Shown one piece after another: positions 6,715 to 17,645 of a stretch of 20,000 nt of DNA. The position numbers and the translations under genes were made by a program. The notes beneath the pieces were generated by a model that had not been told where the DNA came from, did no database searches, and saw only the letters and a program-made list of their open reading frames with translations. The stretch is from an uncultured virus (IMG/VR IMGVR_UViG_3300025770_000897). Lineage: Duplodnaviria > Heunggongvirae > Uroviricota > Caudoviricetes. Location: the IMG/VR virus record IMGVR_UViG_3300025770_000897; one strand, given 5' to 3'. Position 1 is the first letter of the stretch; the number at the start of each line of letters is the position of its first letter.

Positions 6715-9700
6715 TCACCACAGACTTTGCTGTTTGCCCAATTCTTGAGATTCAAAGGTTTCACTGACCCACTTTGAAACTTGGCTATACAATCCAGAAA
6801 TGTATTCGTTACAACCGTAGCGTTCAATCAGAGTCGCCATCAAGTCATCATATTTAGCCACTGAACCTTCCGTTACCGTCAAAATTAGATTACCGGGGCA
6901 ATAAATATCCACTGTTTCGCCAGTGAATCTGTCTTTTCGAGTATCCAATTTTGTTCTACATTTGCCCGAAACAGGCACACGTCGATAACTTTCACCACAT
7001 TTGGTGCATCGAACTTTCTGTTGCCCGTAAGCCCTAAGATTACCTCTCATGTCTCTAATCAAGTGTCTGTCAATCAATTTACTGGCTTGCTCGATGTTAT
7101 CCACCGATTCAAGGATTTCTCCAAGTGCAAATTGTTCCATTGTTTTTCGGCGCATAGAATCCAATGTGTTATACGGATTATTACGGGGTCCTGCTCCACA
7201 ATCTGAAGTGTCGTGAGTAAATCCTATCTTACCCACAGGCAATACGTCTTCATCAATCAAAGTTTCGACAATCCGAATACCATGCTTCAAGGCTTCTTTG
7301 GGTCCCGGTGGTTCTTCAGCGTTGCGAAGAAACTCATAAAACGAAACTGGATATTGCGACAAAATGTCGGTGTTCAAGGCTTCTTTATCAATCTCAGTGG
7401 CTACAATCCGAGTCGTCAGCGTTAGCGGTGCATCCATACGACCACCTCGATTCCGAGGCAAAAACATTCGGCTAAAATTGAGTAGCCCTTCGGTCAGCAA
7501 CATAATACAATCAATATCACCGTCGCAGTTGCGACGTTTAGCAGCATGGTAAAATGGATGACCGTAATGACCCTTAACAGGTGCCGTGCCGATAATCCTT
7601 GCTAAAACTGCCCCAGAGGTGTGAGGTGCAAGCCCCATGATTAACTGACCCACAAGTGCTTCAGCCCCAGCATCGTCTTTCAGCCGATAAAATGGCTCTA
7701 ACTCATACATAGTAACCAAAGCATCATCAGTGAAACGCATAGCCGCTAACAACGGTGTAACACAGTTTTGTGCAACCACTACATCTTGAGGCATCAATTC
7801 AATAACTTGGTCGTCAGCCACAACTGGTTGGCCTTGATAATCCACGTCGTAGCCCAAATCTCTGGCTCGTTCTGCCGTGATACCGATTTCATCGGGTCTA
7901 AAGTGAGTCATAGTAATGTCCACCATATCAAATCGAATTGTGCCGTCACGAAACGAACTTGTGCCGTTGCGTTGTCGCAGCACGGCTTTCAGTAAGTGTT
8001 CTGGAATCTTTTCACCAGAGCCAAGACTTTTGTTACCTTTGACTTTGGGTTCTACGGCTTGGTGAGTAGTTTCCATCGCTTCTTTCCACAATACATCAGC
8101 ATCCAAAGTTTGCTTTACCATACCCACAAAGTTGGTTTCAGTCGGTTTGTGTGCAGGGTCGCCCAAACAAACACCTTTCCATGTTTGCTCGTTGCATTCT
8201 GGACACACTCGAATACCTGTGTAATACTTTTCTGATTTACGAACCGCATCTGGAATCAATCGCTTTGTGCCTACATTAGAACCCACAGGCCAAATCCCGT
8301 GTGTGCTGGGATTCATTTCCCGATGTTTTGAACCTTCGGGCTTACCCATTCTGGCTCCAATTCTCAACGTAGTTCTCGGTCGAACTTGCACCCCAAAACT
8401 TTCGTTAATCCATTCTCTGGCGGATTTTTGGTCGAGGGTATTTAAACTATTCAATTCTTCAGCATCCATCAACGAAACTTTTTCAATAACTTTCAAAATC
8501 AAGCCGGCTTCAGCACCCAGCAAGACTCCTTCTGAATCCATGTCCACATTCAAACGATACACTAATTCTCGATATTTCTGAGGAACGCTTGATGTTAAAG
8601 TCAAAGCCATACTTGCCGCCATTTCCCCGATTTCAACTGCCGTGACATCATCAAGACCCACAGCAATATATTTCGGGTCTAAGGGAACTCCGTAAGTTTC
8701 CGACATACTCCACGCTTCCTTGAAACTTTCCGCAGATTTCAATCCGGCTTCTCCAACTATTTGGTCATGCCACTCCGAAACATAAGGACTTGGAGGAAGT
8801 GGATGGTTGTTTTCTAAGAACTCACCCACAGGCACTAACAATTCACCGATGTCCCAAACTTTTTCAATCGGCCAATCGGGTTCAGTCGGCAACAAAGACC
8901 ATTCATCAGTTTCTTCTAAACCTGCTCGAAGTTTCATTTCAGATTCTGAATTGATTCGTTTTCCTGAGCCATCTTTGAATTGCAGATACGGACCTTGTAT
9001 GGTATCGCATGGCGTAGCCACCGTAGCCTTGCCGGGTCGTTCATACTTCATTTGTGTGCCGCAAATAACGAAACCTCCGATAGCCATCATTGAAACAGGG
9101 TGCATCGCTGTGGTCGCCAGCCCAGCCAATCGACTTCGACCGTATCGTAGTCTCAAACCACCAACTTTCATCGGCAATCCAAAAATAGGGCGACCCGCTA
9201 AAACGTCACTCATGTATTTTTCACTGGGTTCAATGGTTTTAGACTTTCCACCCGTTTTGACGAAATCTCGAAGCCAGTCCCAACCATCCATTTCCAATTC
9301 TTCCACATACTTCAGAATCTTTGGGGCTTTTAACACCAAACCTTCGCACATAACCAACAACATACCTTCACGAACTCTGTTAGTGGGAACTCGTTCAAGG
9401 TCACGCTGACCTGTAACTTCACCGCCTACGCCTTCACCATCAACATAAACAGGACAGTTGTAAGCAATAACTTCTAATTGAGGATTAGAAGGTCGGTATT
9501 GTAATCCACGACTATACTTGGAAACTTCTTCTTTGTAGCGTTCCACTTCATTAAATGTCACTTGTGGTGGCTTTAATCCAAAATCACGACGTAACACATC
9601 AGCAATCAAAACACTCAACGCTTGACCCGTTCCACCTGCACTCCGAATAGGACCTGCATAATTCACCGCTAATGATTCGCTACCATCTTCATTAGTAATA

Positions 9701-10281
9701 ATCCGACATGAAACCACTCCATCCAACGGAGCCACCAGAATACCTTCTGTAAGCACCGCTAAACCAGCGCAAATGCCGTGATACATACAAGTAGCCATTC
9801 GGCTCGTTCCGAGCGTTAAGGAGTCCTTGAGAGCCTCGGTTTCATAAGTCTTGAGAGTTTCTCTCCAATCAGCCTTACCAACCACTTCAGAATCAAACCC
9901 AATAACTTTTCCTGTGCCTTCACAGTTTTCACACGGCACGTCCTTCCATGAAACTTGAGCGTTCTTACCTGACCCTTTACAAGCAGGGCATTTTTGATTC
10001 TCACCGTAAATTAAACTTTCAGCCGCTACAATACGAGCAATCTGAATCGCAACCATTTCACGGTTGCCATTATTTTCTTCTGTAAGTTCTCGAATCTGTG
10101 CCGCCGTGTTTCGAGGATGTAGAAAATCTAAAAGTTTCTGAGTTCGGTCTGCAAGGTCGGAGGCCAGAGGAATCTCTACGGAAAGTCGTGGGTCTAAACC
10201 TTTGGCTTTGGCTTTGGCTACTAATTTATAGGCTTCAGCACACTCCGCTTCTAACCGAGCAATATACCCTTCGTAGTCCAT
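6715..10281 (-). CDS. polC: Archaeal DNA polymerase D large subunit DP2, 1188 aa (start revised from 10302)
   Basis: Collinear DP2 motifs: GLDP...VEIPLA.DLADR, GLAVLTEGILVAPLDG, YAGPIRSAGGT.QALSV, RDLERV.TNRVR.G, KYMSDVLAGRPIF, GGLRLRYGRSR, ERPGK, GEFLENNHPL, RIGARMGKPE, DGTIRFD, GLAPHTS, HAAKRRNCDGD.D, RGGRMDAPL and C-terminal RC.KC...YRR.P..GKC. No intein. Confidence 0.97.
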   Translation of the reverse strand: MDYEGYIARLEAECAEAYKLVAKAKAKGLDPRLSVEIPLASDLADRTQKLLDFLHPRNTAAQIRELTEENNGNREMVAIQIARIVAAESLIYGENQKCPACKGSGKNAQVSWKDVPCENCEGTGKVIGFDSEVVGKADWRETLKTYETEALKDSLTLGTSRMATCMYHGICAGLAVLTEGILVAPLDGVVSCRIITNEDGSESLAVNYAGPIRSAGGTGQALSVLIADVLRRDFGLKPPQVTFNEVERYKEEVSKYSRGLQYRPSNPQLEVIAYNCPVYVDGEGVGGEVTGQRDLERVPTNRVREGMLLVMCEGLVLKAPKILKYVEELEMDGWDWLRDFVKTGGKSKTIEPSEKYMSDVLAGRPIFGLPMKVGGLRLRYGRSRLAGLATTAMHPVSMMAIGGFVICGTQMKYERPGKATVATPCDTIQGPYLQFKDGSGKRINSESEMKLRAGLEETDEWSLLPTEPDWPIEKVWDIGELLVPVGEFLENNHPLPPSPYVSEWHDQIVGEAGLKSAESFKEAWSMSETYGVPLDPKYIAVGLDDVTAVEIGEMAASMALTLTSSVPQKYRELVYRLNVDMDSEGVLLGAEAGLILKVIEKVSLMDAEELNSLNTLDQKSAREWINESFGVQVRPRTTLRIGARMGKPEGSKHREMNPSTHGIWPVGSNVGTKRLIPDAVRKSEKYYTGIRVCPECNEQTWKGVCLGDPAHKPTETNFVGMVKQTLDADVLWKEAMETTHQAVEPKVKGNKSLGSGEKIPEHLLKAVLRQRNGTSSFRDGTIRFDMVDITMTHFRPDEIGITAERARDLGYDVDYQGQPVVADDQVIELMPQDVVVAQNCVTPLLAAMRFTDDALVTMYELEPFYRLKDDAGAEALVGQLIMGLAPHTSGAVLARIIGTAPVKGHYGHPFYHAAKRRNCDGDIDCIMLLTEGLLNFSRMFLPRNRGGRMDAPLTLTTRIVATEIDKEALNTDILSQYPVSFYEFLRNAEEPPGPKEALKHGIRIVETLIDEDVLPVGKIGFTHDTSDCGAGPRNNPYNTLDSMRRKTMEQFALGEILESVDNIEQASKLIDRHLIRDMRGNLRAYGQQKVRCTKCGESYRRVPVSGKCRTKLDTRKDRFTGETVDIYCPGNLILTVTEGSVAKYDDLMATLIERYGCNEYISGLYSQVSKWVSETFESQELGKQQSLW

Positions 10282-10303
10282 GTGTTCTATAAGAACAAGC
10301 ACT

Positions 10304-10313: not shown

Positions 10314-12764
10314 TCACTCTAAGCCAGTGGGAAAGTGTTCAGCCCAAGGACCAGATTCCCAATTACCATATTTCCATGTCGCCAAATGAAACTTTCGATA
10401 ATCAGTTACAGGACCCATCGCTGTAAATCCACTAATATGAGAAACTTTGGTGGCAAAAACATCAATAGCATAAGGCGTGTAACGGTTTGATACAATGTCT
10501 TCCAAAGCCCCAATCAGTTCTCGGTAATTTTCATATTTCTTCCAACTAACTACGCTACCATTTGGCCTTCTAATTTCTACCTCAAAAGGTCCTTGATATT
10601 CATCAGTTTCTACTTCAAAGGTTTCATACTCTGCTGCAAATGTTTCATTGATGACTTCTAAGTAACTTTCACTAACGGGTGGATAAACCATATCTACTCC
10701 GGGCTGACGTTCCGAAAGTTCTTCTCCATTTCTAACGATTTTCTCCACTAAAATGTAATAATGGTCGCATTCCGCACCGCACCAATCCACAGGTGCAATC
10801 TTGGTCACTCGACCTTCCATATAACAATCATCTCGAATCAAAGTTCCGTCAGGGAGAACAAAATCATAACTACGAACACGGTCACCAACTGATACAGCAA
10901 GTTCTGGCTGGCGTTCAGCACCAAAAGTTTCGGAATCGAAAATCTCATGGGCTTCTGGTTCATGTGATGATAATCGGCTGTATCTCCAAAGTGGACCTCC
11001 CCAATCACCATTATCTTCAATAGTGCTTCGCCAATGAGAACGCCAATTATTTCGCACCTCATCAACGGCTTCGTCTTCGTCATAGGCTTCTACTGGACCA
11101 ATACTATAATAATGTAATACTGGAACACTAACTTCGTAGGTTCTTAATTCATCTTCTTCTTCTTCGGATTCAGCATTTTTTTCCATCTTAATAGAACAAG
11201 GGCAAGGAAGATGCGCTATCGCATCGGATTTCCATTTTTTAAGCACTTTGTTTGTGCAAGGTTTAACTTCTGGTCCTATCATACAAACACAAGGATTTTC
11301 TGAATCTGCACCGCACATCTTACAAAAAGATTTGGTTAGCACATAATTAGGAGGATATGTTTTGCCTTCTTGGATTCCTAAAACTCCTCTATGCTTTTGC
11401 TTGAACAAAGACATAAGACGAGCCTCATCTTGCGCTTTTTCAAGGTTAGAAAATGGTCCTTCTAATAAATAACCCATCGCAAACTTTGGTCTATAACGAA
11501 TGTAGTATTCTTTTTCTTCTTCGGCTCGGAGTGTATCATACTCTTTATTGGCCTGATTTTTTGCCTTATCTAAAATCTTGTCCCAATCCCAAGATTCTAC
11601 TTCATCATCATAAATCCATGTGTTTTTGGGCGCATCTATCTTGGGCATATTGCCACTATAATGCCAAATATCATAGACCGGCATATCATAGACTTCGCTA
11701 AAATCTTCAATAGAAAAAATATCTCCGTTTGGGTAAATGTAAGCAGCCTGTTGCCAACCACCTGTTTTTATTCCTTTAGGAATCTTAGGCATAGTGCTTT
11801 CAGATTCAAACCATCGAAAACCTCCGGCATTTCTGGGTCCTTCGTATGGAGTTTTTTGTTCAAAGGTTGCAGTTTTTCCGCACTCCACACATTCCATCAC
11901 GATGAGATTATCCTCGTAGATGTCAAACTTTGCGTTATCAGCGCAGTTGTGTTCGTGTTTCCATTCGTCGTATAATCCATCCCAAAGAACCTGATAGTAG
12001 TCGTGCTGAGGATAGTCCACCGAATCTTCTCCCTTCAACAGTCCATTCTCATGTAAAATGTTCCAGTCTATGTCAGGAACCTTACCCACGTCCCCAGAGT
12101 GGTCGTTTTCAAAAAATGTCAATCTTGAAAATCCATCAACCTCTTCGTTTTGACTCAAACAGACCTCCAACACAACCCCGTTTGGGGCTACCAGTTGTGG
12201 CTTGTAAAACTCAACGATTTGGTCCTTGTATGTTGTTCCAACGCTTGTCATGCTAAATCCAGCATTCTTCAATCGTTTCTTAATCAATTCGGTGGGTGCT
12301 AAATCGGTTCTGCCCCATCCCCATTCATAATTGTCTTCAGACCTAAAACTTACGGATTCATATTTAGCACGCATACTGGGTTTTAGCCATTCCCCAATGG
12401 TTGTTCCACCCAAATACTCAAACGTAAATGGGTTCTTGGTTGTATCAACCCGAATAGTTTCAGGATTAACAATCGGCCTCAATTGCGAAGTAAGAGCCAC
12501 ACTATTTACAATGGTCGTCATCCCAGAACGACCGTAAGTTTCACGATAACGGTTCAATAATTCTGCCGCAGTTACTGGTTCGCCCATCTGAGCCAACAAA
12601 TCAACAAGACGAGCCAATTTGTATCCACTCATATTTCGCTTAAAGTTTCGAGAAGCCTGTTTGTAACATTCGCCTCCACAAACCAAAGCATCAGCACCTC
12701 GTCGTGCCGAGTGGGTATTCTCAGTTGATGCACCGCAAACTAAACAATTCTGAAAAGCCCTCAT
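10314..12764 (-). CDS. Mosaic multidomain protein / putative polyprotein B, 816 aa
   Basis: Long ORF starting 4 nt after the upstream stop. N-terminal CxxC...CxxxC, an internal CxxC, a Cys-rich module and an SH3-like VGDRVRSYDF segment. Segments end in FRSE, LKGE, FESE, LRAE, KNAE, FDSE-TFGAE and FAAE. Confidence 0.75.
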   Translation of the reverse strand: MRAFQNCLVCGASTENTHSARRGADALVCGGECYKQASRNFKRNMSGYKLARLVDLLAQMGEPVTAAELLNRYRETYGRSGMTTIVNSVALTSQLRPIVNPETIRVDTTKNPFTFEYLGGTTIGEWLKPSMRAKYESVSFRSEDNYEWGWGRTDLAPTELIKKRLKNAGFSMTSVGTTYKDQIVEFYKPQLVAPNGVVLEVCLSQNEEVDGFSRLTFFENDHSGDVGKVPDIDWNILHENGLLKGEDSVDYPQHDYYQVLWDGLYDEWKHEHNCADNAKFDIYEDNLIVMECVECGKTATFEQKTPYEGPRNAGGFRWFESESTMPKIPKGIKTGGWQQAAYIYPNGDIFSIEDFSEVYDMPVYDIWHYSGNMPKIDAPKNTWIYDDEVESWDWDKILDKAKNQANKEYDTLRAEEEKEYYIRYRPKFAMGYLLEGPFSNLEKAQDEARLMSLFKQKHRGVLGIQEGKTYPPNYVLTKSFCKMCGADSENPCVCMIGPEVKPCTNKVLKKWKSDAIAHLPCPCSIKMEKNAESEEEEDELRTYEVSVPVLHYYSIGPVEAYDEDEAVDEVRNNWRSHWRSTIEDNGDWGGPLWRYSRLSSHEPEAHEIFDSETFGAERQPELAVSVGDRVRSYDFVLPDGTLIRDDCYMEGRVTKIAPVDWCGAECDHYYILVEKIVRNGEELSERQPGVDMVYPPVSESYLEVINETFAAEYETFEVETDEYQGPFEVEIRRPNGSVVSWKKYENYRELIGALEDIVSNRYTPYAIDVFATKVSHISGFTAMGPVTDYRKFHLATWKYGNWESGPWAEHFPTGLE

Positions 12765-12768
12765 AATT

Positions 12769-15072
12769 TCACATCCACCGTGGCTCTACGCCATAATCTT
12801 CAGACTCAGCATCTAAATCAACAACGTCGAAATAAGCATTGTAAGGTTTAAATCTCATAAAAACTTCCATGATTCCATCTTGATATTCAGTCTCATAACT
12901 CAAAAGGAGTTGAGAATACTTGGCGAGTAGAGCCTCCATGTCATTACTAAAACTATTATAATCAAGAGATGAGTCTTCAGCATTCTTTTCCAACGCTTTG
13001 TAACAAGCACACTTAGGTTCTTTGGCTCGACAACTCATTGGCTCAGGTGCTTTCATACAAACACAAGGATTAGATTCATCAGCACCACAGCAGCAAGAAG
13101 TTTTGCTAAGTTTTTCTTCTGCTTCCAATGCTTCCAATCGAGCCAGTTCTTCTGCATCTTCTTGTATCTGAAGGTATTGTTGTTCTAAATACTGGTCGTA
13201 TTCTGGAGTGTCATAAATAGCCATTGTTTGTTCATACCATTCTTCAAAAGACATCGGTGGGTAATCTGTTTCAGGGTCTAACTCTTCAACATACTCTTCG
13301 TAAGCCTCTTGTGCCATCTCATCTTGATGTGCCAAGTTGTCGTAAGAATCAGATGATTCAGCAGACATCATATCATACCAATTGTGTTCTTCAATCAATT
13401 GTTGAACATCTTTTCGGGCGGATTTTAAAATAATAGAGTAGTGCCTTTCAAATACTTCCTCTAACTGCTCTTGCTGCTCGTCATCGTCTTGGTTGGTAAT
13501 GGTATTCCACCAAGCCTCCACAGAGCCATTGGGCTTACCCTCAAAAGTCCAGATTTTAGTGAGGAGTTTATTCGGCGGATAAAGGTTAGCATGAAAGTAG
13601 TCCCAAGTCACTTCTTCTTCGGTTTGTTCTTCATGTTGCATCCATTGTTTCATAGATTTTTTAGGACTCCACGATTCGGCATCAAAAGTTTCTGCATTCA
13701 TTGATGGGTCTGGAACACAATTACTAAGCCAAAATCCACCAGTATCCACAGTTTCACCATACAAGCAACTTTCATAATTGCCAATTTTACATTGGCGACA
13801 CATCATTTCAAAATCTTCAGCATTCATAGCAGCAGACTTTTTCTTAGCCCAATTTACTCCAGAAGTTCCGCCCCATAGATTCCAAGCAATAGTTCCTGCT
13901 GTGGGTCCACCATCTGGCATCTTTTTACTGGGATTATTGTTTTTACGATGACGATTAAACGCTGACATTCGACGAACATCATGTTTTGAAACTTTTCCTG
14001 AAGCAATCTTTCTGGCACGTGTTACTCCAGAATCAATACCTTGCGATTTGGCTTCGGCAGGACTCAACCCTCCACGACCGTATTTCTTTCGTTGCTCTAA
14101 TCCACGCTTGGCTGCGGATATTGCTGAAGCAGGAGGTTTGTAAGATTCGGCACCGAATCCTCGGTCAGTTCCTGAACCAACCACAAACCAACATTGAACC
14201 TTTCTTCGACCGCCCGGAACGTGTAAGTTTCGAGAATAAATCAAACCTTTGGATTCCATGTCTCTGAGAGTTTTTGAAACACCTGAACGAGTAATTCCCA
14301 GTAATTCACAAATGCCGCCCTCGGTGTTCTCAAACTTTCCATCGTATTTGCTGTTTTGTCGATTATTGTTTAACTGTTCTAAGATGAGTTCTTCCTTTTC
14401 AGTCTTGCGAGCCACATTTGATTCAGCATTCTTGCTCATGGCTCGGTCTAATTTTTCTAAAATCTCATCTTCAGTAATCAAACCCATTTTGAGAGCCGTC
14501 TGCAACTTCAAAAGTTTCTGTTGCTTTTCGCTGTCATCCATCATGTATTGAATTGCCATTACTCGGTCAGTAATCTTGTCAGTCTTGAGTCCTCGTGGTA
14601 ACACAGAAACGGCTTCAAAACGTCTGGATTCACGAAGTTCTGGATAGTTCACACTACCCCAGAATCGTTCATGTGCTAACCGACCTCTTCGGGCGGTCAT
14701 TAAGTCTCCACGACTGTCTTTTGGAATCCGACTCAAGGGTCCTGAATCCGCACTTTCTCGAATCTCTTCGGTTCGCTGCAACAGATTCTTACGCCAGTTT
14801 TGTGTTCGATGCACTCTTTTTGCACCATAAACTTTCTGGTCTCCGAGCCAATACTGAACTCGAATAGCATCCTTTCCACGGTCTCGACTAACAGCCCCAG
14901 TAACACTGGAATACACACGGATTTTACCATCGCCAACAGGCGTTTCATACACACGTTCCTTAACAGGTCTGCGGCCAAAACTACCTCGTTGGTCCACACT
15001 TAATTCTGTAAATCCCAATGCAGACATAAAATCAGACATCTCTGATTCTGTAATAGCCACATATCGACTCAT
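12769..15072 (-). CDS. Mosaic multidomain protein / putative polyprotein A, 767 aa
   Basis: Contains a virus-type ERVYE..IRVYSS..GKDAIRV..KRVHRT.NWRKNL domain, a degenerate topoisomerase-type ribbon, a winged HTH, a phage GRGG..GV.RAR..IAW.LWGG domain, acidic segments and a Cys-rich module. These are separated by KNAE, FGAE, MNAE, MNAE-TFDAE, MSAE, LEAE, KNAE and LDAE. Confidence 0.8.
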   Translation of the reverse strand: MSRYVAITESEMSDFMSALGFTELSVDQRGSFGRRPVKERVYETPVGDGKIRVYSSVTGAVSRDRGKDAIRVQYWLGDQKVYGAKRVHRTQNWRKNLLQRTEEIRESADSGPLSRIPKDSRGDLMTARRGRLAHERFWGSVNYPELRESRRFEAVSVLPRGLKTDKITDRVMAIQYMMDDSEKQQKLLKLQTALKMGLITEDEILEKLDRAMSKNAESNVARKTEKEELILEQLNNNRQNSKYDGKFENTEGGICELLGITRSGVSKTLRDMESKGLIYSRNLHVPGGRRKVQCWFVVGSGTDRGFGAESYKPPASAISAAKRGLEQRKKYGRGGLSPAEAKSQGIDSGVTRARKIASGKVSKHDVRRMSAFNRHRKNNNPSKKMPDGGPTAGTIAWNLWGGTSGVNWAKKKSAAMNAEDFEMMCRQCKIGNYESCLYGETVDTGGFWLSNCVPDPSMNAETFDAESWSPKKSMKQWMQHEEQTEEEVTWDYFHANLYPPNKLLTKIWTFEGKPNGSVEAWWNTITNQDDDEQQEQLEEVFERHYSIILKSARKDVQQLIEEHNWYDMMSAESSDSYDNLAHQDEMAQEAYEEYVEELDPETDYPPMSFEEWYEQTMAIYDTPEYDQYLEQQYLQIQEDAEELARLEALEAEEKLSKTSCCCGADESNPCVCMKAPEPMSCRAKEPKCACYKALEKNAEDSSLDYNSFSNDMEALLAKYSQLLLSYETEYQDGIMEVFMRFKPYNAYFDVVDLDAESEDYGVEPRWM

Positions 15073-15426: not shown

Positions 15427-15897
15427 TCAATTTCCGTTTAGAACATCCGACAAATGCTTGTTGTCGAGACCCTTTGTGAGTCGGTCAATCAACTGCAACT
15501 TGTTTCCAGACACAGGCAACCCTGCTGACTTGAGTAGTTCTTTGAGTTCTGCAACCTTGAGACCAGAAAGGCGGTCTTGCAGGTCATCCACAGCATCGGC
15601 TACATCGGCAACCACGTCGTCGGCCACTTCTTCAAGTGCTTCCGAAACGCTTTCTCCTTCTTCCAGAGCCTCCATGACTTCTTCCGAAGCCTCTTCGACA
15701 ACATCTTCCACCGAACTTAGAACATCGGAGACCACTTCATCGAGTTCAATGTCCTTTCCTGTCAAGTCCTCGACAACATCTTCGAGTTTGTCTGCAATTT
15801 TGGCAACTGCGTTACCACGGTTCTTGAGCCACCAGCCACCAATTGCTGTAATAGCCAATCCTCCGAGTCCAATTAAAATCTGTGTTTGTTCATCCAT
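15427..15897 (-). CDS. Membrane-anchored acidic protein with C-terminal SAP domain, 156 aa
   Basis: N-terminal TM segment (ILIGLGGLAITAIGGWWL), Asp/Glu/Val-rich spacer and SAP consensus LSGLKVAELKELLKSAGLPVSGNKLQLIDRL. RBS AGGTGA at 15904-15909 and a TATA-like TTTATATG at 15939-15946 (- strand). Confidence 0.85.
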   Translation of the reverse strand: MDEQTQILIGLGGLAITAIGGWWLKNRGNAVAKIADKLEDVVEDLTGKDIELDEVVSDVLSSVEDVVEEASEEVMEALEEGESVSEALEEVADDVVADVADAVDDLQDRLSGLKVAELKELLKSAGLPVSGNKLQLIDRLTKGLDNKHLSDVLNGN

Positions 15898-15949: not shown

Positions 15950-16840
15950 TTACTTCATAAATCCAAAGATGTGAGCGATAACATCCACAGTCCAACCGTT
16001 TCCGATGGCTCGACGACGTTGAGTTTCAGCAATACCTTCCGTATATCCATCTGGCAAGGTTTGAAGTCGTTCACATTCCAGATTAGTGAAATCTCTCCAA
16101 TCATCTTTGACTGGACTTCCGTAAGCATCTGGATACCTACCATGTGGCAAACGACTAACTACTGCATCCTTTGAAACTGTGGTCAAGCAAGGAACTTTCG
16201 TAGAATCCTTTCGCACTTGTAGGCATTGAGTAATTGGCACAGACTTGTCATAATCTTTACGAACTCCGTCGGCATTCAATCTTCGGCCAACTACATTGGC
16301 TGCATTTGGATAATCATCCGATTCCAGAATGTCTGAAAGTTTGATACCACGGTCTGCTGGAATCACTACGTCGGGAATGTTAGTCCAGTAATATCGCTTT
16401 CGATTTTGAGCCGATACCAGATTGGAGTTGATAAACACAGGCTCCACACCCAATGCTGCCGAGATAGCATCTCGCACATCATCACTCATTACCACATTTT
16501 CTAACAACCAATACTTAGGTTTGTAATGATTTACAATATCCAAAAACTCAAAGAACAATTTACTGCGTGGGTCATCAAAGTTTAATTGCCGACCTGCGGT
16601 TGAAAATCCTTGACACGGGCTTCCTCCAATAATCAAATCTAAGTTTTCAAGGTCCCAATCACGCCATTTGGTAATATCACCCAGTTGCACGGTGTCAGGC
16701 CAATTCTTTTGAGTAACTTTAATTGGATTCTTGTCAATTTCAGAGGCATAATACTGGTCGTGTTCAATACCTGCTCGTTCCAAAGCAACTTGTCCACAAG
16801 AAATACCGTCAAACAATCCGAGAACATTACGAAGTTTCAT
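15950..16840 (-). CDS. DNA (cytosine-5)-methyltransferase, 296 aa
   Basis: Motifs I LFDGISCG, IV GGSPCQGFS, VI LLENV, VIII QNRKRYYW, IX ECERLQTLPDGYT and X IGNGW. ATGA overlap with the upstream paralog. Confidence 0.95.
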   Translation of the reverse strand: MKLRNVLGLFDGISCGQVALERAGIEHDQYYASEIDKNPIKVTQKNWPDTVQLGDITKWRDWDLENLDLIIGGSPCQGFSTAGRQLNFDDPRSKLFFEFLDIVNHYKPKYWLLENVVMSDDVRDAISAALGVEPVFINSNLVSAQNRKRYYWTNIPDVVIPADRGIKLSDILESDDYPNAANVVGRRLNADGVRKDYDKSVPITQCLQVRKDSTKVPCLTTVSKDAVVSRLPHGRYPDAYGSPVKDDWRDFTNLECERLQTLPDGYTEGIAETQRRRAIGNGWTVDVIAHIFGFMK

Positions 16841-17622
16841 TCGGAGTCCTCCATGTTCCTAAAAATGTGGGAGATAACATCTACTGTCCATCCATTTCCG
16901 AGAGTTTTGTATCGTTGAGTATTTGATATGCCGTTGGTGTAATCGTCAGGTAATGTTTGAAGTCTTTCGCATTCCAATACCGTTAGTTTTCGTGAGTGCG
17001 TGTTGTCTATGCTGTCCCATTCATGTCGGTCATAACTTTGGCGACCACCTACTCGAAGGCACTTACTTTTAGGTCTAACCGTAATGCCCGCTTCCGCAGG
17101 GATTTCCAAAATAGACTCCAAATTGATACTTTGGTCTGCGGGAAGTTCTACATTAGGAATGTTAGTCCAGTAAAGCCTACGTCTGTTTTGTGCCGAAACT
17201 AAATTGGAGTTTATCATAATTGGTTCCACACCAAGTTCTTTCGATATAGCATCTTGAATATCTTGCCTCATTTTTACATTTTCCAATAGGAAATACTTCG
17301 GTTTAAAGTGTTGAACAATGGCTAAGAACTCAAAAAACAAACTGCTTCTGGGGTCATCAAAGTTTAATTGCTTACCTGCTAAAGAAAATCCTTGACACGG
17401 GCTTCCACCCATTACCAAATCTAAGTTCTCAATGTCCCACGATTTCCAATCAGTTACAGAACCCATTTGAACGGTATCAGGAAATTGCTTTTGTGTTACC
17501 TGCATAGCATACTTGTCTATTTCAGAAGCATGATATTTTTCGTATTCAATACCTGCACGCTGCAAAGCAACTTGCCCGCAAGAAATACCGTCGAACAATC
17601 CGAGAACATTACGAAGCCTCAT
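16837..17622 (-). CDS. DNA (cytosine-5)-methyltransferase paralog, 261 aa (start revised from 17640)
   Basis: Same C5-MTase motifs. MRLRNVLGLFDG aligns with the paralog's MKLRNVLGLFDG start. TATA box TTTAAATA begins 31 nt upstream. Confidence 0.95.
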   Translation of the reverse strand: MRLRNVLGLFDGISCGQVALQRAGIEYEKYHASEIDKYAMQVTQKQFPDTVQMGSVTDWKSWDIENLDLVMGGSPCQGFSLAGKQLNFDDPRSSLFFEFLAIVQHFKPKYFLLENVKMRQDIQDAISKELGVEPIMINSNLVSAQNRRRLYWTNIPNVELPADQSINLESILEIPAEAGITVRPKSKCLRVGGRQSYDRHEWDSIDNTHSRKLTVLECERLQTLPDDYTNGISNTQRYKTLGNGWTVDVISHIFRNMEDSE

Positions 17623-17645
17623 GTTTTTGATTACACTCAAGCACC

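Follow-up and report, generated by a model that had tools for sequence, protein, structure and literature searches.

Modular proteins with a recurrent Ala-Glu linker in marine viruses with archaeal-type replication genes: candidate cassette-built polyproteins

The window of 20,000 nucleotides analyzed here comes from an uncultured virus of the class Caudoviricetes (IMG/VR record IMGVR_UViG_3300025770_000897) and contains, on the minus strand, two tandem open reading frames (ORFs), namely A (12769-15072; 767 amino acids (aa), about 9 modules) and B (10314-12764; 816 aa, about 8-9 modules), the latter beginning 4 nt past the end of the former. The modules are connected by short linkers of the form x-A-E. 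These linkers sit at module edges, are conserved as peptides while their codons vary, and are the points at which modules have been gained, lost and reordered in the relatives of A and B. We favor, with a probability of roughly 0.55, the possibility that A and B are cassette-built polyproteins in which the linkers are cut after Glu by a dedicated protease.

A conserved linker motif recurs in both proteins

The original prediction described the linker as [FLMK]x[ASG]E and listed its occurrences in A and B with coordinates, all of which are correct; one match, LYGE at residues 437-440 of A, had not been listed. The pattern occurs 10 times in A and 8 times in B, compared to 3.5 and 2.8 expected by composition, respectively, that is, with an approximately 3-fold enrichment, whereas the 15 remaining ORFs of the window, when pooled, are at expectation (7 vs 7.8). 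The large subunit of DNA polymerase D (DP2), which is encoded next to B, contains 8 matches, with 4.3 expected, and among 121 homologues of A and B, there are 842 matches compared to the expected 338.

Given that the pattern was set post hoc, it was tested on independent sequence, for which we took the stretches of the homologues outside any alignment to A or B (30 single-linkage representatives totaling 7110 aa, each end trimmed by 10 aa). A tight form of the motif, [FMKLY][NDSEGAH]AE, is present 32 times in this set, compared to 3.8±2.1 in 300 shuffles (maximum 11), an approximately 8-fold excess, and AE[ST] is present 22 times (4.3±2.1 expected). The reversed controls are flat, with 4 occurrences of EA[ST] (4.2 expected) and 4 of [FMKLY][NDSEGAH]EA (3.6 expected). 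With 6-residue flanks retained, the count is 53 vs 4.8. In 429 unique contexts of the linker, Glu at P1 is preceded by Ala at P2 in 361; N, D, S, E or G occupies P3, and F, M, L or K occupies P4; the next residue is mostly S, T, E or D, as had been noted in the two ORFs (318 of the 429 contexts: S 109, T 94, E 62, D 53). The consensus can thus be sharpened to [F/M/K/L/Y]-[N/D/S/E/G]-A-E, followed by S/T/D/E, the most frequent tetrapeptides being MNAE, FDAE, FEAE, KNAE, FSAE and FGAE.

An exhaustive search for the family of the N-terminal domain of A (238 representatives, E<=0.001) shows to which proteins the linker belongs. The 34 family members of at least 300 aa, which are multi-module proteins, contain the motif 56 times compared to 11.6±3.3 expected, whereas the 104 stand-alone members shorter than 220 aa contain it 6 times, with 4.4±2.2 expected. 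The linker is therefore specific to the multi-module proteins of this virus lineage. It is not confined to A and B. A close relative, denoted G001 (an IMG/VR viral record, 166,176 bp), is bounded by inverted terminal repeats (ITRs), and its counterparts of A and B are 86% and 57% identical (best tblastn segment), respectively. Apart from the two polyproteins, 218 ORFs of G001 contain 72 tight motifs, a 3-fold excess over the expected 24±5, and this excess is concentrated at 69-86 kb, in a cluster of unannotated and likewise modular products, several of which possess a C-terminal membrane anchor. A repeat unit of approximately 30 residues, G-V-P-x-W-Y/F-G-S/A-A-E, recurs within and between the proteins of this cluster, always with the linker motif at its end (G001 84250-86457 and 80617-81672; L020 6095-7993 and 10037-11548).

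The codons of the linker vary (GCT/GCC/GCA and GAA/GAG), which indicates that the constraint acts on the peptide, and a purely DNA-level signal was dropped for this reason. Two other candidate functions were rejected as well, namely translation starts at the Met of MNAE and MSAE, given that Phe and Lys are equally common at this position, and Asn-dependent self-cleavage at N-A, given that D, E, S or G replaces Asn in most linkers.

The linker marks the edges and the exchange points of modules

The architectures of related proteins were compared using the 17 modules of the window as queries, an approach that is more robust than the counting of alignment breakpoints. Among the 171 homologues, we identified 56 distinct module strings; 44 homologues combine A-type with B-type modules, and 25 are non-collinear with the window. 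The modules thus evolve separately, in agreement with the earlier proposals that these ORFs are strings of small modules and that the linker is a plug-in point. The partners found in the relatives include PolX, C2H2 and TFIIB-type zinc fingers, Cu/Zn superoxide dismutase (SOD), GNAT, the catalytic domain of Glu/Gln-tRNA synthetase, pterin dehydratase and DEAD helicase.

Variant contigs from other samples, obtained from four RNA-library runs mapped on the window at 90% likeness, break at the codons of the motif. These contigs cover parts of both ORFs and are uninformative on transcription, its level and strand; the stretches of the window without contig cover are uninformative altogether. The two contig joints within the ORFs each connect one motif to another (12812>13123, LDAE to LEAE; 13356>13690, MSAE to MNAE), and 6 of the 9 loose contig ends shown inside the ORFs fall at motif codons (12976, 13122, 13358, 14152, 11165 and 11179), the other three being at 11148 and 11629 (twice). 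Each joint or loose end comes from just one contig of low depth, which probably derives from a related strain, and is taken as supporting evidence rather than proof.

The original prediction placed the motifs at recognizable domain edges and proposed comparing them with the boundaries in predicted structures; for the most part, the two coincide. In A, 122 of 174 starts and 147 of 205 ends of BLAST matches lie within 5 residues of a motif Glu, although such positions account for 13.6% of the protein; in B, the respective numbers are 47 of 113 and 41 of 112, with 10% of the positions, the matches in both cases being mutually related such that the counts overstate the number of independent events. 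In the AlphaFold model of A (30-sequence alignment, mean predicted local distance difference test (pLDDT) score 61.7), five segments with pLDDT<50 fall on motifs (212-216, 300-308, 418-472, 564-583 and 651-669), and one dip in confidence, at 142-181, contains no motif. For B, the model is of low quality (mean pLDDT 44.3) and uninformative on linkers over residues 296-722, but its confident parts still stop before FRSE and resume after FAAE. The rule fails for LKGE (12027-12038, residues 243-246 of B): since this tetrapeptide lies inside a confidently modeled domain (pLDDT about 85) and no breakpoints cluster around it, it is probably a chance match. The contrast in charge between the segments that are separated by the motifs was also recovered, e.g., net +17 for the LWGG module compared to -25 for residues 573-652 of A.

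The ends of natural proteins define the unit boundary. In 54 of 433 family proteins, representing at least 5 module families, [ASG]E or [ASG]EE immediately precedes the stop codon (e.g., ...YSAE, ...NWSAE and ...RNAE). A homologue of module A2 that occupies the last position ends with ...MLGE and a stop, compared to ...KNAE at the end of the internal A2. Conversely, when the LWGG module comes first, it consists of Met followed by the usual post-linker sequence (M-SFKPP, i.e., S-F/Y-K-P-P), and stand-alone LWGG genes of the lineage retain both flanking motifs, along with short leader and tail peptides. Because several module families end with [A/S/G]-E at the stop, the unit boundary is Glu|Ser, with Glu closing each unit. 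A scissile bond after Glu would fit both the ...[ASG]E ends and the M-S... starts.

The LWGG module connects A with head proteins

The LWGG module of A (residues 310-419) is by far the best-conserved one, dozens of its alignment columns being invariant. Its identity to the N-terminal domain of Peptidase_S78_2 (XkdF, PF14550) proteins of approximately 260 aa is 54-60%, and that to a part of gp11 of the haloarchaeal virus HGTV-1 is 35%. The latter protein (888 aa) is annotated as 'prohead protease'; by eye, its N-terminal part is protease-like, and its C-terminal part resembles a coiled coil or scaffold. Only the small gene gp12 separates its gene from the major capsid gene gp13 downstream. In a Vibrio phage, the LWGG homologue is encoded three genes upstream of the capsid gene, and the gene immediately after it encodes a coiled-coil protein, possibly the scaffold. 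A Foldseek search of BFVD with the LWGG domain yielded 48 matches with E<=0.001, and the names among the top 50 include prohead protease (8), XkdF (4) and portal (3); fusions to ParB, HAD, Dps and Tudor domains are also among the matches. Because the domain is fused to, or found in proteins named as, prohead proteases, XkdF and portals, and is encoded near capsid genes, it is predicted to belong inside the assembling heads of tailed viruses. This is the sole tie of A and B to a virion. DUF5872, once considered as a name for the LWGG domain, was dropped because it is a different module.

In HGTV-1 gp11 (L018 2621-5287), the LWGG domain is preceded by M-A-E-T and followed by K-S-E-S, and the scaffold-like tail contains F-D-A-E-E; sites of this kind may thus be in use in cultivated haloviruses.

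Putative processing of the linkers and alternative explanations

We propose the following tentative model. Each ORF would encode about nine small modules in a row that fold autonomously, and every module ends with a hydrophobic residue or Lys, then N, D, S, E or G, and then Ala-Glu, with the next module opening with Ser, Thr or an acidic residue. In the most economical reading, the linker would be processed by cleavage after Glu, and the dedicated protease responsible might, as in T4, phiKZ and SPN3US, be the virion maturation protease. Cutting would free the modules as small DNA-binding, metal-binding or strongly acidic proteins and, in the relatives, PolX, Cu/Zn-SOD and others. The very basic, conserved LWGG module probably would draw the chain into the assembling particle.

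Several observations weigh against this model. No cleavage products were seen, and the register of the motif, with Ala at P2 and a hydrophobic residue at P4, is unlike the L/I-x-E and A-x-E motifs of known head proteases. Helices run, at low confidence, through four linkers in the AlphaFold model of A (214-217, 416-419, 569-572 and 649-652), and the shared linker codons AAT-GCT-GAA could alone favor recombination there. The surroundings of A and B are a replication block (methyltransferases, MCM-like, DP2) free of recognizable head genes, and no capsid, portal or scaffold gene was recognized in our searches. Finally, the Glu-specific viral protease that the original prediction called for did not emerge: no member of the S77, S78 or S78_2 families was found in two related ITR-bounded genomes (166 and 160 kb; G001 and a second genome, G002, of 160,342 bp). 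There was no match to S77 (PF03420) at E<=1 in G001, the sole genome searched with this profile, and none to S78_2 and S78 (PF14550 and PF04586) in G001 or G002. A purpose-built hidden Markov model of the XkdF protease part, run against six-frame ORFs of G001 and the window, gave a best E of 0.55; Pfam and PHROGs searches with approximately 175 ORFs of G001 revealed no protease or head gene; and phmmer searches with head genes of HGTV-1 and the Vibrio phage matched the LWGG part alone. A search of the ESM Atlas with a candidate structural protein produced no usable match, and A and B themselves contain no peptidase domain detectable by Pfam. The lack of a protease is weak evidence, given that, as related in PMC9026906, the phiKZ protease likewise escaped detection for years.

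The alternative that survives best is that A and B are uncleaved multidomain proteins in which the linker is a mere seam, i.e., a spacer or helix cap, the shared coding sequence of which allows in-frame recombination and is carried along with each exchange. The precise location of variant-contig joints and loose ends in the linker codons is what such a seam predicts, and so is the recurrence of coding sequence: AATGCTGAA is found four times across A and B, and AAYGCNGAR occurs 9 times in the window, compared to 2.7 expected, with 5 of the 9 in frame within A or B. The negative protease searches and the helical modeling of several linkers point in the same direction. Nevertheless, we consider this explanation doubtful and clearly less probable than processing, because the codons are not the same, and A-E-[S/T] persists despite wide variation at P4 and P3, which implies a constraint on the peptide. 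Moreover, the motif is kept before stop codons and around stand-alone modules, where there is no neighbor to join, and is absent from the stand-alone homologues outside the lineage.

Another possibility is that A and B are early cytoplasmic polyproteins that are expressed with the replication genes and cut at the linkers by a host protease or a non-structural viral one, with no role as virion cargo. The gene neighborhood is compatible with this scenario: A and B are tightly linked, on the same strand, to the DP2 gene and lie downstream of C5 methyltransferase genes in the window, with an MCM-like gene located still further upstream in G001; there are no head genes nearby; and the modules resemble DNA-binding and repair proteins (winged helix-turn-helix (wHTH), Zn ribbons and, in the relatives, PolX). 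The fusion of the LWGG module to prohead proteases and portals in other viruses speaks against it, and no candidate protease of any kind was recognized, so that we regard it as improbable. Chance, that is, the composition of Ala- and Glu-rich sequence, which might be invoked given the looseness of the original pattern, its excess in DP2 and the LKGE inside a folded domain, is excluded by the excess of the motif, but not of its reversed controls, in independent module families, the clustering of breakpoints at motifs, the expected counts in the other ORFs of the window, and the confinement of the excess in the N-terminal domain family to long, multi-module proteins.

Comparison with known systems

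The closest parallel is with the polyvalent proteins of phages and conjugative elements (Iyer et al. 2017, PMC5512222), for which delivery with the DNA and processing into units, by embedded metallopeptidases, have been proposed, as outlined in that article. As in A and B, with about 9 modules per ORF and 56 strings among 171 homologues, several unrelated small domains are combined in one polypeptide, and relatives are mosaic. The differences are that A and B share one short motif across their junctions, lack a peptidase domain and belong to an archaeal-type lineage; none of the hallmark domains of polyvalent proteins (embedded metallopeptidase, ART, helicase, methylase and LPD) was detected in A or B by Pfam. 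The terms 'linker' and 'archaeal virus' each occur 0 times in the text of PMC5512222.

The accounts in PMC9026906 and PMC10052503 confirm the precedent on which the original prediction drew, namely that short motifs are cut after Glu by the head proteases of T4 (gp21) and of the phiKZ type. As described there, T4 gp21 (L/I-x-E) and phiKZ gp175 and SPN3US gp245 (A-x-E) cut many sites per protein and favor Ser at P1'. The similarity to the linkers of A and B thus extends to a short motif ending with Glu, the preference for Ser in the next position and the multiplicity of sites, and the substrates of these proteases include internal or ejected head proteins. In contrast, their key residue is P3, in motifs of the form L/I-x-E or A/S/G-x-E, whereas A and B have Ala at P2 and a hydrophobic residue or Lys at P4, and the known cuts mostly remove propeptides, whereas the sites in A and B separate whole modules.

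The XkdF-type proteases and HGTV-1 gp11 share the LWGG domain with A but possess a protease domain and are encoded beside capsid genes, whereas A and B lack a protease domain and are encoded beside DP2. In African swine fever virus, the polyproteins pp220 and pp62 are cut at Gly-Gly-X by a viral cysteine protease. Here, as perhaps for A and B, polyproteins in which a short site recurs give rise to virion components of a large double-stranded (ds) DNA virus; the site, the protease class and the host are different, and no module shuffling at the Gly-Gly-X site is known. What we rate as new is that, in an archaeal-type virus lineage, a polyvalent or processed-protein system has a single conserved motif, universal among its junctions, which is also the exchange point.

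Module composition of the two proteins

All modules are encoded on the minus strand. In A, the only Pfam match is to the wHTH, which is also the sole fold recognized in a Foldseek search of the PDB with the 767-aa model; B has no Pfam match. A1 (residues 1-141, 14650-15072) is a basic alpha/beta domain without a Pfam family, the homologues of which elsewhere are mainly stand-alone proteins of approximately 150 aa with a topoisomerase-type Zn ribbon. It is followed by the helical A2 (142-217, 14422-14649), with KNAE at the C-terminus; A3 (218-309, 14146-14421), the MarR/CodY-like wHTH, which ends with FGAE; A4 (310-419, 13816-14145), the LWGG domain, with a net charge of +17 and a C-terminal MNAE; and A5 (420-466, 13675-13815), a small module with 4 Cys, after which comes the double linker MNAE-T-FDAE. 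The acidic, Trp-rich helical A6 (467-572, 13357-13674) ends with MSAE, and the highly acidic helical segment A7 (573-652, 13117-13356), with a net charge of -25, ends with LEAE. The last two modules are A8 (653-699, 12976-13116), an 8-Cys module with a C-terminal KNAE that is paralogous to residues 476-532 of B, and A9 (700-756, 12772-12975), which ends with LDAE and the coordinates of which include a conserved 11-residue C-terminal tail.

The 80 residues of A7 adjoin modules with net charges of +17 and +9; that this module is a DNA mimic of the Ocr/ArdA kind is speculation only. The Cys-rich module is present once per ORF (12976-13116 and 11169-11339), with 8 and 7 Cys, respectively, in CxC and CC patterns, and the two copies are 44% identical. 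It looks metallothionein-like. In relatives, this module is also found at the N-terminus, and Cu/Zn-SOD modules are carried by relatives as well.

B starts with B1 (residues 1-143, 12336-12764), a Zn ribbon with a helical domain that ends with FRSE, and B2 (144-322, 11799-12335), a beta-rich domain with a Zn-ribbon-like part, which includes LKGE within the fold and has FESE at the C-terminus. Next are B4 (323-415, 11520-11798), which ends with LRAE; B5-B6 (416-532, 11169-11519), a helical part and the Cys-rich module, with a C-terminal KNAE; the acidic B7 (533-617, 10914-11168), which ends with the double linker FDSE-T-FGAE; B8 (618-712, 10629-10913), which ends with FAAE; and B9 (713-816, 10317-10628), a confidently folded C-terminal domain with ...GLE at the stop, where relatives have ...GAE or ...GSE.

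Genomic context and virus lineage

Downstream of B, 11 nt past its stop and on the same strand, lies the gene for DP2 (6715-10302 (-), Pfam E 1e-103). The lineage, which consists of marine viruses with linear genomes of approximately 160-166 kb with ITRs (G002 included) and archaeal-type replication genes, encodes both archaeal PolD subunits (G001 54761-58351 and 145642-147030), and DP2 is merely 36-39% identical to the DP2 of Methanolobus and Halobacteriales. PolD is not known to have been reported in viruses, and a search of the literature outside subscription journals, on PolD-encoding viruses and on polyproteins in archaeal dsDNA viruses, retrieved nothing relevant. Magroviruses differ from this lineage in that they use PolB, have genomes of approximately 100 kb and carry just a DP1-like nuclease. 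Residues 103-134 of DP2 (9900-10000 (-) in the window) form a DnaJ-like CxxCxGxG zinc-finger insertion near the N-terminus (Pfam E 0.0013), directly followed by F-D-S-E.

Apart from PolD, G001 encodes TBP, TFIIB, an MCM-like protein, PCNA, an ATP-dependent ligase, Hjc-like, ERCC4, XPD-like, Fpg and UvdE proteins, a class II ribonucleotide reductase, several C5 methyltransferases and an ArsA/Get3-like ATPase. Nearly all of the remaining ORFs, among the approximately 175 searched against Pfam and PHROGs, have no match, and the sole packaging-like match is a HerA/terminase-like ATPase. Tandem C5 cytosine methyltransferase genes are located at 15950-16840 and 16837-17640 (-) in the window, and G001 has three in tandem and a fourth (47168-49769 and 142374-143333). 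A SAP-domain protein is encoded at 15427-15897 of the window. The ArsA/Get3-like ATPase (G001 113253-114446 (-), Pfam E 2e-59) co-occurs with many modular, linker-bearing proteins that end with a single C-terminal membrane helix, i.e., have a tail-anchored topology (G001 69819-71453, 72424-73863 and 84250-86457; L020 10037-11548, 12514-13314 and 14216-15667), suggestive of a pathway, encoded by the virus itself, for the insertion of tail-anchored proteins.

The virus is widespread: apart from the possible source samples, seawater metagenomes from at least 6 studies contain near-identical DNA. A homologue 92% identical to B is recorded on an ENA contig of 104,430,999 bases, which is either a chromosome-scale assembly that is contaminated with or carries the virus, or a concatenated record.

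Implications

In the broader perspective, we suggest, tentatively and with the odds somewhat against us, that this lineage expresses much of its accessory and virion repertoire as cassette polyproteins, in which the universal A-E|S/T linker would be both the cutting site of a protease of an unrecognized family and the in-frame docking point through which PolX, SOD, DNA mimics and metal binders move between genes and genomes. If so, dsDNA viruses of prokaryotes would have a plug-and-play expression system of natural origin. Should the linker be cut, polyprotein processing would be a general strategy of expression and module acquisition in a prokaryotic dsDNA virus, beyond the trimming of propeptides, and would point to an unrecognized Glu-specific protease. 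As a simple handle, the motif parses hundreds of otherwise unannotatable proteins into units, the predicted termini of which can be searched for in metaproteomes. Even if uncut, the linker is a clear natural case of a fixed in-frame seam for swapping unrelated domains, useful for understanding the evolution of viral accessory proteins and for designing cleavable or swappable fusion proteins.

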